Shown here piece after piece: positions 22,953-48,034 of a stretch of DNA of 64,000 nucleotides; position 1 is the stretch's first letter; each line of letters opens with the position of its first letter. The position numbers and the translations under genes were made by a program. The notes under the pieces are model-generated. The model did no database searches. It saw only the letters and a list, made by a program, of their open reading frames with translations, and was not told the origin of the DNA. Source of the DNA: an uncultured delta proteobacterium (GTDB taxonomy: Bacteria; Myxococcota; Myxococcia; Myxococcales; Anaeromyxobacteraceae); the NCBI GenBank assembly GCA_963814585.1, contig CAWFDF010000008.1:256001-320000 (forward strand). Direction: 5' to 3'.

Positions 22953-25460
22953 TCAACGGATGGTGGTGGCGTTCTGCGCCGCCGCCGAGGCGGCGAAGTC
23001 GAGCACCATGTTCCCGGTGAAGGTGGCGAACCCGTGGATCCCGTCGGCGGTGGAGCCGGTCGCCTCGGACCGGTCGTGCAGCAGGACGCCGCCGGGAAGG
23101 ACCGCGCCGCTGGTGACGCCCCCGGTGTAGGGAACCCGGACGGACGGGACGAACCCGCTGGCGGTGCTGAAGGTGACGTAGGCGCCGCGGTCGGGCGGGG
23201 CGTAGCCCCCATTGGGCCGAATCACCCCGACCCTGAACGAGACCAGCGGGCCATTGGGCAGCGGGAACACCAGGCTCGCGGGGGGGACCGCCCAGGTGCC
23301 GTAGCAGGCAGGCTCCTTCGCCTCGCTGCACCGGTTGGTCACGTAGAAGAGCCGGCGGGCACGGCGGGCCAGGACCAGCCGCTCGCAGGTGGCCCGGCAG
23401 CTGATCACGTCGGCCTCGCACGCGGCCACCGCCCCGGCCGGCGGCGGCCAGTCCGCGGGTGCATCGGGCATGATGGGGCACGAGAGCAGGTCCTCGTTCT
23501 CGTATCGAACCTGGAACATGGGGATGGTGGTGTCGGTCGGATCGAAGACCTCGACGGGCCGGCCGACGTAGCCGGCCCGCTGGCCTGCCGCCACGTACCC
23601 CCAGGACCGCACCGTCACCCTCAGCGGAGTCTCGGCGCCCGCCGGCAGGCAGGTGGGATTTGCCGGCTCGGTCTGGCCCGGGTTGATGGGCTGGGTGGCG
23701 GCCGGCGTCAGGGCGATGGCGCCTCCGGGTGCGTCCGCGGTCGGGGGCAGGAGCCCGGTGACCACCATCTCGAACTGCCCGAGCGGGCAGACCCCGGCCG
23801 GGAAGCCGCCGAACTCGACGATGTCGAAGGGCTGGATGGCGAGGCGAGGATCGTAGACCCGGACCACGCTGCGCCAGGCCTCGCTGCCGGGCCCGGTCAA
23901 CCCGGTGGCCTCCTGGAGCGCGACCTGGACCGGCGCCTGGGGCGCGCCGGCCGGGACCCTGGCCAGGGCGAGGCGGCTCCCCAGCCCCGGCAGGACCCCC
24001 TGGTAGGCCACCGACCAGGTGTCGTTCGGGGTGAAGCCGGGCGTCACCACCACGCCGAAGGCGGCCTGGATGTCGACGAGCACGACCCACTCGGTCTGGG
24101 TCCCGCTCGGTGGCAGCAGCTGCCAGAAGCCGACGGTGTTGGAGGTCACGCTGGGCGCGTAGGACGCCGACGAGATCACGCGGGCGCGGCTGCTCCCCGT
24201 CAGCGAGGAGATGTCATTGGCGATCGCGAAGTGGGAGAGGTCGGCGAGGTAGACCCGGCCCGAAGACGAGGAGATGCTCGCGATCGACTGGGTCCAGCGC
24301 TTCCCGCTCCCGGGCGCCAGCTCGAGGTAGCCGGGGACGGTGCTGTGGAGCGGTGCCCCGCTCACGGCCAGGTCGACCACCTCCCCGTCCACCTGGAGGG
24401 GAAACTGGAACGGCAGCTCGCCGGCCGGATCGGGCGCCGGCCCTCCCGCCACCGGATCGAGGACGGCGACGCCACACGGCATCGAGCGGTCGCGCCCGCA
24501 AGCCCGGGTGTCGATGGCCGCCAGCACCCTGGGCACCGCGGGGCCGAACTCGTCGAAGTTGGGGACGGAGGCCTCGTAGTTGCTGTCGACGAAGGGCGCG
24601 ACGTCGAGCGCGGCGACCCGCGTGGTCCCGGCGCGCGCGGCGATGGCCCGCACCGGGAAGGGCCCGGGGGGTGAGGTGGGGGCCAGGTCGAGCTGGGCCA
24701 CCCCGAGGACGCCGCCGGCGCCGGGGATGGGATCGATGGTGGCCGCGTAGAGGTACCGGCCGTCGGGCGAGACGGCCAGGTCGAGCGCGGTGAAGCCGGG
24801 GTCCTGACGGGCCGGCGGCCCGAGCTCGATGGCCTCGCCACCTGCCACCCGGGAGGCCTCGATGGTGACGAGGGCCCCGCCGGTCAGCCCCGCCACGATC
24901 CGCGCCGCCCCGGGCCTGACGCGGAACCCACCGGCCCCATCCGGCTCCAGGACCGGCGTCACCACCAGGGACAGCAGGTCCTCGTCGGGCGCCACGCCGC
25001 CGAGGTCGACGGGAGCCTCGACGCGGGTGGCCTCCTCCCAGGTCACCACCGCCTGGAGCACCGCCGCGTACTGGCCGGGGAAGCCGGGGCGCTGGACCAG
25101 GCCGGACGGCGCCACCACCAGGAGATCGGGGCGCGCCAGGGGGTTGAGCTCGGCGTCGACGTCTCCCAGGCGGCCCGCCGCGATGAGCGAGGGCCGGGGC
25201 TCGGTGGGCACGGACAGGGCGGCGACCAGGGTCGGCCCCAGCTCCCCCTGGTCGGTCACCGCGTCGATGATGCGCAGGTCGTCGCCGCGGGTGTTGGAGA
25301 CGGCCAGCAGGTGCCGCAGCACGCCCGGCTGCGAGGCGCCATAGCCGCGGTAGACGGCGATGCCGGTGGGGCCGTTCATCTTGAGGGTCGGCCGGGCGGT
25401 GTTCTTGGCGCAGCCGGCCACGGCCATGGCGACCAGCACGGACGTCACGAGGCGGCTCAC
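22953..25460 (-). CDS. Large hypothetical lipoprotein (about 835 aa), probable beta-propeller N-terminal part
   Basis: GTGA overlap with the upstream gene; lipobox VAGC; DLAVSPDGRYLYAA; strong GC3 bias in this frame. Confidence 0.72.
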   Translation of the reverse strand: MSRLVTSVLVAMAVAGCAKNTARPTLKMNGPTGIAVYRGYGASQPGVLRHLLAVSNTRGDDLRIIDAVTDQGELGPTLVAALSVPTEPRPSLIAAGRLGDVDAELNPLARPDLLVVAPSGLVQRPGFPGQYAAVLQAVVTWEEATRVEAPVDLGGVAPDEDLLSLVVTPVLEPDGAGGFRVRPGAARIVAGLTGGALVTIEASRVAGGEAIELGPPARQDPGFTALDLAVSPDGRYLYAATIDPIPGAGGVLGVAQLDLAPTSPPGPFPVRAIAARAGTTRVAALDVAPFVDSNYEASVPNFDEFGPAVPRVLAAIDTRACGRDRSMPCGVAVLDPVAGGPAPDPAGELPFQFPLQVDGEVVDLAVSGAPLHSTVPGYLELAPGSGKRWTQSIASISSSSGRVYLADLSHFAIANDISSLTGSSRARVISSASYAPSVTSNTVGFWQLLPPSGTQTEWVVLVDIQAAFGVVVTPGFTPNDTWSVAYQGVLPGLGSRLALARVPAGAPQAPVQVALQEATGLTGPGSEAWRSVVRVYDPRLAIQPFDIVEFGGFPAGVCPLGQFEMVVTGLLPPTADAPGGAIALTPAATQPINPGQTEPANPTCLPAGAETPLRVTVRSWGYVAAGQRAGYVGRPVEVFDPTDTTIPMFQVRYENEDLLSCPIMPDAPADWPPPAGAVAACEADVISCRATCERLVLARRARRLFYVTNRCSEAKEPACYGTWAVPPASLVFPLPNGPLVSFRVGVIRPNGGYAPPDRGAYVTFSTASGFVPSVRVPYTGGVTSGAVLPGGVLLHDRSEATGSTADGIHGFATFTGNMVLDFAASAAAQNATTIR

Positions 25461-44400: not shown

Positions 44401-45894
44401 TCACGCCTTCGGCGCCCGGCGGAACAGGTCGACCACGGCGCCGGATCGGCCAGCCACCCGGGCCCGCCCGCGCGCCCACTCGCGCAGCGCCTTGATCTGC
44501 TCCTCGTAGGTCTTGAAGAGCGGCACCAGGTCCTGCGCCACGCGCCTCAGGTCGGCGGTCTCGAGGTCGCGCGAGAGGGCGAAGGCGCGGTGCAGCCCGC
44601 CCACCACCACCTGCTCCAGCTCCGCGCCGGAGAAGTCGGCACACAGCTCGGCCAGGGCGGCCAGGTCGAGCCGCTCCGGAGCCCGGCTCCGCCGGCGCAG
44701 GTGGAGCGCCAGGATCTCCCGCCGCGCCTCCAGGTCGGGCAGGTCCACGAAGAAGAGCTCGTCGAAGCGGCCTCGCCGGAGCAGCTCGGGCGGCAGGCGG
44801 GTGACGTCGTTGGCGGTGGCCACCACGAAGATCGACCCCTGGCGCTCCTGCAGCCAGGTGGAGAACGACCCCAGCAGCCGGGCCGCGCGGGCCTCGCCCC
44901 CCTGCCCCGGCGCGCTGCCGGCGAACCCCTTCTCGATCTCGTCCACCCAGAGCGCCACCGGCGAGATCGCCTCCGCCGCCTCCAGCGCCAGGGCCAGGCT
45001 CTCCTCGGCCCCTTCGCGGCCCAGCACCCGCGGCAGGTCGAGCCGGACCAGCGGCACGCCCAGGCGCGCCGCCGCCACCTTGGCCGCCAGCGACTTGCCG
45101 CACCCCTGCACGCCGACCAGCAGCACCCCGCGCGGCGCCGGCAGGCCGAACCCGGCCGCCTCCGGCGCGAAGGCCTGGGCCCGCTCGTCGAGCCAGGACT
45201 TGAAGGTGGAGAGCCCGCCCAGGTGCTCCGCCGACTCGGCCTCCTCCACCACCTCGAGGCCGAGCTCGCGGGTCATCAGGCGCCGCTTCTCCTCCTGGAT
45301 GGAGCCCATGGCCCCGGCCCCCAGCGCCGGGTCGAGCCGGAGCGCCTGCGTGAAGGCGCGGCGCGCCTGCCCTTCCGAGAACCCCCGCGCCGACGTCAGC
45401 GCCCGGTGGCGGGCCACGGGGTCGGGCTCCGGCGCCCCGGTGGCGTGCCAGACCTCGTCGAGCACCGCGGCCAGCTCCTCGAGCGCGGGGAGCGGGAGCC
45501 GCATCGTGGCCACCGACTCGGCCAGCCCGTCGGGCAGCTCCAGCCGCGGCGCCACGATCATCAGGCAGCGCCCCTCGGACGCCAGCCGGGGGAGCGCGTC
45601 CCTCACGGCGCGGGCCACCGCCGGATCGCGCAGGGCGACGTGGAAGTCGAAGAGCACCGCCAGCAGCGGACCCGGGGTGGCCAGCAACGCGTCGATCGCC
45701 TCGATGGGCGAGCGGGCGTGGGGGGCCTGCGGCAGCAGCCCTCGGTGCGACGACCAGCTGGCGAACTGGGCGTCGAACCCCTCGGCGGCGGCGCGCGCCA
45801 GGGCCAGCGCCCGCTCCTCCTCCGAGGTGACCAGGTAGACGATGGGCGTCCCGGCCGACCAGAGCCCGGCCAGCCGGGTGACGACGTCCTTCAC
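44401..45894 (-). CDS. Ycf46-like AAA+ ATPase
   Basis: YLVTSEEERA N-terminus; Walker A GVQGCGKS; Walker B LWVDEIEK; TAN; PPELLRRGRFDE; REWA tail; GTGA overlap with the GspE-like gene. Confidence 0.9.
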   Translation of the reverse strand: MKDVVTRLAGLWSAGTPIVYLVTSEEERALALARAAAEGFDAQFASWSSHRGLLPQAPHARSPIEAIDALLATPGPLLAVLFDFHVALRDPAVARAVRDALPRLASEGRCLMIVAPRLELPDGLAESVATMRLPLPALEELAAVLDEVWHATGAPEPDPVARHRALTSARGFSEGQARRAFTQALRLDPALGAGAMGSIQEEKRRLMTRELGLEVVEEAESAEHLGGLSTFKSWLDERAQAFAPEAAGFGLPAPRGVLLVGVQGCGKSLAAKVAAARLGVPLVRLDLPRVLGREGAEESLALALEAAEAISPVALWVDEIEKGFAGSAPGQGGEARAARLLGSFSTWLQERQGSIFVVATANDVTRLPPELLRRGRFDELFFVDLPDLEARREILALHLRRRSRAPERLDLAALAELCADFSGAELEQVVVGGLHRAFALSRDLETADLRRVAQDLVPLFKTYEEQIKALREWARGRARVAGRSGAVVDLFRRAPKA

Positions 45895-47720
45895 GGCGTC
45901 CCCTCCACGTCGGCGGTGGCGCGCATCGCCTCCTCGTAGGAGGTCACGCCGGCCGCCACCTTCTGGACGGCGTGCTCGCGCAGGCTCTTCAGGCCGTCCT
46001 GGCGGGCGGTGCGGACGAGCGCCTCCGGCGTGGCCCCCTCGGCGATGAGGTGGCGAAGCCGGGCGTTGATGGCGAGGATCTCGAAGAGCCCGGCCCGGCC
46101 GTAGTAGCCGGTGTAGCGGCACTTGGCGCAGCCGGTGCCTCGCCGGGCCAGGAGCTCCCCGGCGTGGTCCTCGGGGTGGGGCACCCCCAGACCGGCCACC
46201 TGGTCGGCGGTGAGCGGGACGTCCTCGGCGCAGGCGGGACAGACCTGGCGGACCAGGCGCTGCGCCACCACGCCGGTGAGCGTACCGGCGATCAGGAAGC
46301 TGGGCACGCCCAGGTCCCGCAGCCGGGCGATGGCTCCCACCGCGTCGTTGGTGTGGAGCGTGGTGAGCACCAGGTGGCCGGTGAGCGCGGCCTGCACGGC
46401 CTGGGTGGCGGTGTCGGCGTCACGGACCTCACCGACCATGATCACGTCGGGATCCTGGCGCAGCACGTGCCGGAGCGCCTCGGCGAAGCTGGTGCCGGTG
46501 CGCGGATTGGCGGCGATCTGGTTGAAGTCCTCGTGGACCATCTCGATGGGATCCTCGATGGTCACCACGTTGACCTCCGGCGACGCCAGCGCCTGCAGCG
46601 CCGAGTAGAGGGTGGTGGTCTTGCCGGAGCCGGTGGGGCCGGTGACCACGATCAGCCCGTGGGGGCGGAGCAGCCAGCGCTCGAAGGTCTCCCGCTCGTC
46701 GGGCAGGAACCCGAGCTCGGAGAGGTCGCGCACCAGCACGCTGGGGTCGAGGACCCGGACCACCACCTTGTCGCCGAAGGTGGTGGGGATGGTGGAGACG
46801 CGCAGCTCCATCTCGGCGTCGCCCCGGGCGGTGCGGATCCGCCCGTCCTGCGGCTTGCGGGAGGCGATGTCGAGCCGCGCCATGATCTTGAAGCGGTTGG
46901 CGATGGCCCCGTGGACGCCCTTGGGGATGCGGTGGACCGGGTGGAGGACGCCGTCGATCCGCATCCGGATGATCGACTCGTCGCGGCGCGGCTCGATGTG
47001 GATGTCGCTGGCCCGCTGCTCGAAGGCGTAGTGCAGCAGGTACTCCACCGCGGCGATGATCGGCTCGCTGGAGGCCTCCAGGGCGTCGACGCCGGAGAGG
47101 TTCACGAACTGCTCGAGGTTGCCGACGTCGATGGCGCCGCCGCTGAGCTGGATCTGGGCCTCCGACACCTGGGCCCGGAAGCCGTAGACCTCGGCGATGG
47201 CCCGGTGGATGTCGGTCGGCGCGGCCAGCACCGGCTCGATCTCCAGCCCGGTCAGCCCGCGCAGGTTCTCGAACAGCTCCCGGTCGAACGGGTTGGCCGT
47301 CGCCACCACCAGCAGGGGGCCCCGCCGCTCCAGCGGCAGCACGGCGTGGCGGCGGGCGAACGGGCGGGAGAGGGTCCGGGTGATGAGCCCGGCGTCGAGC
47401 TTGAGCGGATCGATCTTGCGGTACGGGATCCCGGTCGCCAGGGCCACCACCTGCGTGGCCTTGTCCTCGTCGATCAGCTCGGCCTCCTGCCGCTGGTCCG
47501 GGAACTCGAAGCTGGCCATCAGTTCGATGGGCGACAGCTCGGCTCGCCGCAGCCCCCGGCCCCCGGCCCGCGAGGCCTGCTCGCGCAGCAGGCGGGCCCG
47601 CTGGACGTTCTCGCGGGCGGCGGCGGTCTTGCGGGCGTCGTCCGAGAGCAGGCCCTGCCTCGCCAGCGCCTCGGCGACGAACTCCAGGGTGAATTCCGTG
47701 GCGTGGTGGCGGCGAGTCAA
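45891..47720 (-). CDS. GspE/PulE/PilB-family secretion/pilus ATPase (TTG start)
   Basis: ASDIHIEP, RMRIDGVL, PQDGRI, GPTGSGKTT, TIEDPIE, LRQDPDVIMVGEVRD, TGHLVLTTLH, CPAC...CAKC zinc site. Confidence 0.93.
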   Translation of the reverse strand: MTRRHHATEFTLEFVAEALARQGLLSDDARKTAAARENVQRARLLREQASRAGGRGLRRAELSPIELMASFEFPDQRQEAELIDEDKATQVVALATGIPYRKIDPLKLDAGLITRTLSRPFARRHAVLPLERRGPLLVVATANPFDRELFENLRGLTGLEIEPVLAAPTDIHRAIAEVYGFRAQVSEAQIQLSGGAIDVGNLEQFVNLSGVDALEASSEPIIAAVEYLLHYAFEQRASDIHIEPRRDESIIRMRIDGVLHPVHRIPKGVHGAIANRFKIMARLDIASRKPQDGRIRTARGDAEMELRVSTIPTTFGDKVVVRVLDPSVLVRDLSELGFLPDERETFERWLLRPHGLIVVTGPTGSGKTTTLYSALQALASPEVNVVTIEDPIEMVHEDFNQIAANPRTGTSFAEALRHVLRQDPDVIMVGEVRDADTATQAVQAALTGHLVLTTLHTNDAVGAIARLRDLGVPSFLIAGTLTGVVAQRLVRQVCPACAEDVPLTADQVAGLGVPHPEDHAGELLARRGTGCAKCRYTGYYGRAGLFEILAINARLRHLIAEGATPEALVRTARQDGLKSLREHAVQKVAAGVTSYEEAMRATADVEGTP

Positions 47721-47792
47721 GGCGCGGCGAGTCTACCCCGGGCCCTCGAGGCCACCAAAATCACGGCAGGCCGGCACGCCGGAGCTCCATGG

Positions 47793-47810
47793 GTCGCCCG
47801 ACCGGGCGAC
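47793..47810 (-). promoter_or_regulatory. Putative bacterial SECIS element
   Basis: mRNA reads UGA-GGGAUCUGACC-GUCGCCC-GGUC-GGGCGAC: a 7-bp stem beginning 11 nt after the UGA, with G/GU at the start of the loop and no U-tract afterwards. Confidence 0.6.
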
Positions 47811-47812
47811 GG

Positions 47813-48034
47813 TCAGATCCCTCAACCGACGGGACCGCAGCCGGGTGGCGGCCCGCCACTGGACCGGCTCCCGCGCCCGCCGCGCGCGGCCGCCGGACGC
47901 GACATCTGCCGCGCCACCCGCCTGGAGCCGCAGGTGGGGCACGACACCTCGGCCTCGTCGGACTTGCGCAGGACCAGGGTCTCGAAGGCGGCCTCGCAGG
48001 CCGGGCAGGCGTACTCGAAGATGGGCACGCCCAT
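47813..48034 (-). CDS. FmdB-family zinc-ribbon protein; candidate selenoprotein (UGA 47822-47824 read as Sec, true stop 47813-47815)
   Basis: PIFEYACPAC...FETL...CPTCGS zinc ribbon; Gly-rich tail ending CGPVG-UGA-GI-UGA. Confidence 0.85.

Follow-up and report, generated by a model that had tools for sequence, protein, structure and literature searches.

In bacteria, SelB binds the upper stem-loop of the SECIS element through the G/U of its loop and brings Sec-tRNA to the UGA codon; in the fdhF SECIS of E. coli, this upper stem-loop lies 11 nt downstream of the UGA and has GU in the loop. Mammalian thioredoxin reductase, a large flavoenzyme with a eukaryotic SECIS, carries adjacent Cys and selenocysteine (Sec, U) residues in a C-terminal GCUG arm. 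For bacterial SECIS (bSECIS) elements, a consensus has been given with a loop of 3–9 nt beginning with G[G/U], a stem of 4–16 bp, a distance of 16–37 nt from the UGA and an MFE of −7.5 or lower (PMC13188914). Within the FmdB family, selenoproteins were predicted from GOS with a CxxU motif in 2 sequences and with 807 Cys homologues (Zhang and Gladyshev 2008, PMC2398784); FmdB is listed as UxxU in Table 1 of PMC13188914 and as U/CxxU in PMC9312934. FmdB was not found in the passages on deep-Sep (PMC12013277), in the text and one supplement of BSepDB (PMC13326102), in the main text of the Haft and Gwadz preprint (10.1101/2022.07.06.499078) or in the available sections of PMC1914089, a study whose method called for an extension of more than 10 codons beyond the stop; in PMC11227280, FmdB is the name of another protein. 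Sec at the C-terminus lies beyond PGAP prediction (10.1101/2022.07.06.499078).

The stretch of DNA analysed here, 64,000 nucleotides long and referred to as the window, carries on its minus strand an FmdB-family gene, the tail of which reads ...PPPGCGPVG in the codon map and is followed by TGA (47824-47822), GGG ATC and a second TGA (47815-47813). With read-through of the first TGA, the coding sequence occupies 47813..48034 (minus strand, as do all parts of this gene) and would specify 73 aa ending ...C-G-P-V-G-U-G-I before the stop, that is U-G-I-stop, a Sec-X-X-stop form. The ATG start codon is at 48034; as relatives begin with M-P-I, an alternative GTG at 48028, giving 71 aa, may be the real start. 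The FmdB-family zinc ribbon domain (47882..48025, residues 4–51) contains two CxxC pairs, C10/C13 and C32/C35, with TGC codons throughout, and the four Cys are invariant in alignment A3 (20/20). The protein scored 51.9 bits against TIGR02605 (cut-off 31.3), in agreement with the FmdB-type zinc ribbon named in the initial annotation. The Gly/Ser/Ala/Pro-rich linker (47840..47899) varies in length in the alignment and is predicted to be disordered (pLDDT 43–57); in an AlphaFold model with Cys put for Sec, pLDDT was 84–90 over the first 40 residues, which hold the ribbon, and 43–57 in the unstructured tail. When this model was compared with known folds by Foldseek, nothing matched at E 0.001, and the weak similarities were to zinc ribbons (RNA polymerase subunits, MCM, HypA). 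The linker is followed by Cys66 (47837..47839), the presumed partner of Sec, invariant in A3 (20/20) and A6 (36/36), by the in-frame UGA five codons later (47822..47824), putatively Sec71, by the Gly-Ile codons (47816..47821) and by the second TGA (47813..47815), presumably the true stop codon.

Downstream, and given for context only, lies a GspE/PilB-type ATPase gene (45891..47720, minus strand) scoring below all equivalog cut-offs; it is syntenic across the family of the window (present in 32 related loci), and we take the position of the FmdB-family gene before it as plain synteny. A G-rich stretch ending in TAGACT upstream of this ATPase gene (47742-47730, minus strand) recurs in several relatives and is possibly a -10 element. 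Elsewhere in the window, ARAGORN called a tRNA-Ser(gga) of 98 nt (23878-23975, plus strand), which may be spurious or a remnant; several tRNA-Ser(gga) calls were made in the genome.

The nearest named records of the window protein are from Anaeromyxobacteraceae and Myxococcales. In the source genome selA, selB, selD and tRNA-Sec (selC), the genes that the initial annotation had proposed to look for, were all found over curated cut-offs, with tRNA-Sec at 77.1 bits. The selD gene is itself interrupted in frame by a TGA, at the position of its own Sec, and its hairpin has another look, not of the GGUC type. The source genome also supplied an internal control, a selenoprotein gene of UXX-star family 1 (NF041114, 111 bits, cut-off 72; contig C8 ~150307-150534, minus strand, L250:508-735), in which the end reads U-G-V-stop and an 8-bp GGUC-loop stem is found 16 nt downstream of the UGA. 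The selA gene (contig C4:434750-436159) matched its model as two pieces within one open frame, which suggests a short insertion near model position 160, and the same split was seen in many genomes of the family. In a PrdB/GrdB-like gene (contig C12:29009, plus strand, L251), which at 105.5 bits falls short of the PrdB cut-off of 300, an in-frame TGA lies within the context VPV-U-PMC and is followed, at 18 nt, by an 8-bp stem bearing a GUG loop. A second tRNA-SeC called by ARAGORN (contig C9:112340-112432) is absent from the Rfam tRNA-Sec matches and is probably spurious.

One database protein (P0036) has W at the UGA site, which favours a reading of UGA as Trp or Cys through a changed genetic code or leaky read-through. 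However, TGA is the commonest stop of the source genome (long ORFs: TGA 974, TAG 595, TAA 31, i.e. 974/1,600), the second stop three codons on is also TGA, and tRNA-Sec is the only UCA tRNA with Rfam support. The W entry would most simply reflect the code chosen by a gene caller, and we regard such a reassignment as exceedingly improbable.

Exactly 11 nt separate the first TGA from a perfect 7-bp stem with a GGUC loop (47793..47810, minus strand; loop at 47803-47800), and the loop starts 18 nt after the UGA; this geometry, pointed out in the initial annotation, was borne out by the codon map. Taken alone, the hairpin 47810-47793 has a folding energy of −12.9 kcal/mol, which together with its 4-nt loop, 7-bp stem, GG at the loop start and distance of 18 nt places it within the bSECIS consensus. 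As only two codons follow Sec, this candidate SECIS upper stem-loop would be situated in the 3' UTR without coding constraint, like that of the UXX-star gene. The further claim that the hairpin is no intrinsic terminator also held: the terminator scan left it uncalled, its sole match being a different weak site (47781-47764), and the U-tract that an intrinsic terminator needs after the stem is absent.

As a single sequence, the 50-nt fold is not unusual (z = 0.38; 125 of 200 shuffles fold equally well). Genome-wide, a GGUC-loop hairpin follows 21 of 73,019 TGA triplets, or 2.9 per 10,000, in comparison with 3.0–3.9 for control triplets and 0/2,823 for TAA; among these 21 pattern matches only the window gene and the UXX-star gene were recognisable by eye as gene ends. 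A looser genome-wide scan yielded 59 candidates, mostly spurious. Since the lone hairpin is no commoner than after control triplets, the case for a SECIS rests on conservation. Over the 20 rows of a DNA alignment, 95% of the 140 stem cells are paired, against 36–48% for slid control structures, and inspection by eye attributed six of the seven unpaired cells to L041, which the aligner had shifted by one column. Changes on both sides occur in three of the seven stem pairs (17 such cells), and the covariation of the stem, which counts as support and not as a probability because the rows of the alignment are kin, is 0.329 as compared to 0.110 ± 0.027 in shuffles, with none of 500 shuffles reaching the value. 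Two measures that count pairs or pair types gave no excess over shuffles (141 and 148 of 500). Four ORFs extend six codons beyond the UGA and so reach into the stem, and even in these the loop is found 17 nt from the UGA; the position of the hairpin is therefore tied to the UGA rather than to the real stop.

Protein searches in 41 genomes recovered 20 orthologues, from 19 of the 24 family relatives and the source genome, each with one inner TGA (20/20) and all ending in CGP[VI]G-TGA-[GAS][ILV]-stop. A DNA pattern in which TGC and TGT were allowed at the first site gave 68 matches in 67 of 92 family genomes, with TGA at that site in 68/68, whereas the second stop, as counted from the matches listed, is TGA in 48, TAG in 19 and TAA in one; together with the stem pairs changed on both sides (3/7), this gave a positive answer to the question, put in the initial annotation, whether UGA and hairpin are conserved with compensatory changes. 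The reversed pattern, run as a control over the same 92 genomes, had no matches. A TAA/TAG version of the pattern had two, both in genomes with the TGA gene elsewhere, and no ribbon was seen upstream of either in the stretch examined, which for one of them comprises just 83 nt. Among family relatives, the first codon after the UGA encodes a small residue (G/A/S) and the second a hydrophobic one (I/L/V/F), and synonymous changes occur. Two orthologues with UGA and hairpin (L085, 4001-4213, and L093) have lost the near second stop via a small indel and are either real variants or assembly errors. Contigs from two metatranscriptomes extend over the gene of the relative L027 into the hairpin; such contigs show neither strand, ends nor transcription.

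Distant homologues have conspicuous ends of the form C-x(n)-GF[ST] or C-x-P-x-G, and the search was widened to 151 genomes from the phylum to which a Desulfocurvus record (G213) belongs and to 151 from that of an Anaerolineales record (G214), which we take to be Desulfobacterota and Chloroflexota, respectively; the best 30 loci of each sample were read as DNA. A TIGR02605 search of 121 phylum genomes returned mainly long-tailed paralogues, used as controls only. Altogether, 197 distinct FmdB ORFs were classed by the protein tail alone, the class being defined by one Cys in the last 14 residues; this definition replaced a first version that had mis-binned members with a linker Cys, and was thus tuned after seeing the data. 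The class counts are biased frequencies, because the rule was refined after a first try and the loci were picked by similarity: behind one-Cys tails the first stop is TGA in 80/80, a GU-loop hairpin follows in 72/80 and a second stop comes within 1–6 codons in 76/80 (TGA 39, TAG 23, TAA 14), whereas the paralogues overall have TGA in 69/117 and a hairpin in 4/117. The latter divide into 64 ORFs with two or more tail Cys (TGA 36, TAG 17, TAA 11; 2 hairpins) and 53 remaining ORFs (TGA 33, TAG 14, TAA 6; 2 hairpins, one of them in a member mis-binned by the rule). Exceptions within the class are the eight of 80 members that miss the hairpin rule, and L085 and L093 with no near second stop. Two residues follow Sec in 55/80, class members span three phylum-level samples, and the 36 read-through relatives in A6 all match TIGR02605. 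In L206 and L216, two or three FmdB-family genes form tandem arrays; just one array gene of L206 has a UGA-plus-hairpin tail, and it adjoins SufBD and CxxCxxCC genes. Haft and Gwadz call, in their criteria 1–2, for at least ten examples and 100% TGA at the site (10.1101/2022.07.06.499078), and the 68/68 and 80/80 found here conform to this.

The co-occurrence of selA, found in 29 of 29 family genomes tested and also in those genomes of the G213 and G214 samples in which the UGA form had been seen at the loci read, has little power, as the background is high, with selA in 143 of the 151 genomes of one sample. Of 43 matches in selA-less genomes, 30 were read as loci (L254 fell outside the pattern), and the UGA form was seen in 4 of 18 genomes with no selA match (L252, L253, L256, L258). 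Among these, G345, G323 and G354 have selB and tRNA-Sec and are read by us as incomplete assemblies; G216, with tRNA-Sec only, is a less clear case. In the loci retrieved from four near-complete genomes with no selA, selB or tRNA-Sec match (G027, G031, G034, G038), every tail was of another type. The co-occurrence data are thus consistent with the Sec reading, at low power.

Another possible explanation is that the first UGA is a real stop, with the hairpin as a conserved 3' UTR element (a U-less terminator, a stabiliser or a protein-binding site) and the second stop as a tandem back-up. Every database annotation does end at the first UGA, high-GC genomes favour TGA, the lone fold is insignificant, and the searches made found no Cys homologue. 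On the other hand, TGA is invariant in low-GC loci too, where the second stop is often TAA (TAA 6, TGA 5 and TAG 2 in the 13 member loci under 52% GC), and paralogues from the same samples use all three stops and have no hairpin. A U-rich tail occurs in only 4 of 69 hairpins of relatives, the loop keeps its GU and its fixed distance from the first UGA, the residue class is maintained in the two codons after it, and the four genomes with no match to selA, selB or tRNA-Sec carry other tails in the loci retrieved. On balance we consider a real stop at this position very unlikely.

The initial annotation had set beforehand, as a test, whether homologues have Cys at the UGA position, and the outcome went against the Sec reading. 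None of the 100 nearest proteins has Cys there: 99 end at CGP[VI]G and the remaining one is the W entry mentioned above. C-x4-C-xx in a tail of the window type was not seen by eye among 150 cluster representatives, nor was a Cys-for-Sec form among the 119 profile matches listed, and none of 28 metagenome pattern matches was in a ribbon gene, that pattern being narrow because its first Cys codon was fixed. Cys-rich tails of paralogues (C-x4-C-xx-C and similar) are a loose counterpart only. Selenoprotein prediction usually relies on a Cys homologue aligned to the UGA, and none was found here; such a homologue is an aid to prediction and stands outside the biological definition. We judge this lack to be a real gap that is outweighed by the other support, the searches having been non-exhaustive.

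The Sec machinery, the invariance of the codon, the covarying hairpin and the domain layout are evident at the level of sequence analysis. The machinery, the contrast between an invariant first UGA and a variable second stop, the covariation and the occurrence of the same hairpin on the UXX-star gene all argue for UGA as Sec, as the initial annotation had proposed; its C-x4-U motif holds in the subgroup of the window but not class-wide, where the distance from Cys to Sec ranges from 4 to 10 (4 in 42 of the 80, 5–10 in 37, and 2 in one non-member). We thus favour, with a probability of roughly 0.9 judged from sequence, the reading that the window gene is a real selenoprotein using the standard SelB mechanism and represents a new subfamily by the position of Sec; the insertion of Sec at the UGA is, on the same grounds, highly probable. 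SelB with GTP and Sec-tRNA would bind the hairpin with its GGUC loop, located 18 nt beyond the first UGA, Sec would be inserted at this UGA, and the ribosome would add Gly-Ile and stop at the second stop codon before the hairpin, which would thus be left in the 3' UTR. In the predicted product, a flexible linker joins the four-Cys zinc ribbon to a C-x4-U-x-x arm at the C-terminus.

Granted Sec, the arm may act as a mobile redox site that alternates between a selenolate/thiol and a selenylsulfide and is reduced again by the thioredoxin system, with the zinc ribbon docked on a partner during the cycle; this is a weaker reading, to which we would give roughly even odds. Genes for thioredoxin, thioredoxin reductase, DsbD-type or C-GCAxxG-C-C proteins occur within 1.5 kb of 11/47 members outside the family of the window, as opposed to 2/140 paralogues, a biased count in which six of the 11 positives supplied query proteins, leaving 5/41, and some loci are kin. 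No thiol-redox neighbours were found in the 16 loci of the family type of the window itself. A DUF302 gene adjoins the Sec-tail gene in three distant loci (L042, L198 and L204, one of which supplied a query) versus 0/140 paralogues.

Alternatively, Sec may be inserted and the arm bind a soft metal or metalloid, or aid Fe-S or metal delivery, instead of cycling. Tails that have at least two Cys among their last 14 residues, and so resemble metal sites, are found in 64 of the 197 ORFs, all of them paralogues; SufBD neighbours occur in 4/47 members, ArsR and metal-resistance neighbours singly, and metal binding has been suggested for UXX-star proteins (PMC13188914). However, thiol-redox neighbours outnumber SufBD (11 vs 4 of 47, the count being biased), and the variable spacing between Cys and Sec is loose for a fixed metal site. 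Given Sec, metal binding is a tentative possibility; taken without that premise, this alternative is somewhat unlikely.

A selenium-dependent switch has also to be considered, in which RF2 termination at low selenium would yield a 70-aa form with a lone Cys, and selenium the 73-aa form, the two acting differently on a partner. Termination would cost just three residues and leave the ribbon intact, and the apparent absence of a Cys version fits a role needing the UGA itself; yet a neighbour scan that covered 98 of 132 picked ORFs turned up no selenium genes, and UXX-star glutaredoxins share the geometry of the end with no such proposal in the passages of the literature covered here. As a function of the arm, a selenium switch or some other role is doubtful even when Sec is granted, and the switch as just described is improbable. 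More speculatively, and with low odds, these proteins might form a widespread, selenium-obligate class of zinc-ribbon mini-proteins with a Cys...Sec arm and no Cys-only version, common in anaerobic lineages, overlooked on that account by searches for Cys/Sec pairs, and acting as a mobile redox or selenium-status switch with differing short and read-through forms.

If the Sec reading, which we prefer, is true, a common group of small proteins is annotated 2–7 residues short and minus its key residue, RefSeq entries of cultured Anaeromyxobacter included; 2,083 proteins, not all of them members, came up in a profile search at E 0.001. The database FmdB members are cut at the UGA (clusters of WP_041453372.1, WP_012526586.1 and WP_242345127.1, 65–66 aa), although an identity look-up would miss U-bearing records, so that a later correction is possible. 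A subfamily would be added that is absent from the 119-entry catalogue of 2026, in which no entry is a zinc ribbon bearing Sec in its tail (PMC13188914). Selenoproteins as a rule have Cys homologues; this subfamily would apparently depart from the rule, and the lack of a Cys version would be why standard searches missed the class. For part of the FmdB family, which is uncharacterised, it would also provide a first concrete clue to function.

In comparison with known systems, the window protein is a member of the FmdB family (TIGR02605, Pfam PF09723) by its four ribbon Cys, the model covering the ribbon only, and TIGR02605 is the only NCBIfam 20.0 model that it exceeds the cut-off of; no selenoprotein model was seen among the 25 families listed, of 86, for the 36 read-through relatives in A6. 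With the GOS FmdB selenoproteins, known to us by their text description, it shares the domain family, a predicted Sec and a bacterial SECIS. Those proteins have Sec in CxxU/UxxU, outside of which the window protein falls: its class keeps all four ribbon Cys and has Sec in a C-x(4-10)-U tail, 1–6 residues from the end. With UXX-star proteins (NF041114, NF041211, NF041212, NF047338) the Sec-X-X-stop end and a SECIS in the 3' UTR are shared, and the UXX-star copy of the source genome has the same GGUC hairpin; however, UXX-star is a glutaredoxin fold and the window protein a zinc ribbon, with no match to NF041114, NF041211 or NF041212 at E 0.01, none to NF047338 and none among the 25 of 86 families listed for A6. 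SaoC (NF040734) and KCU-star (NF033934) likewise have Sec at or beside the C-terminus and are missed by annotation, but differ in their CU dipeptide and CC homologues and are unrelated proteins. Mammalian thioredoxin reductase is a works-like analogy in its flexible C-terminal Cys/Sec arm, with no homology. The decoding mechanism is the ordinary bacterial one, and the class of the window protein belongs to the FmdB family, is distinct from the catalogued FmdB selenoprotein and has a UXX-star-like end without being UXX-star.
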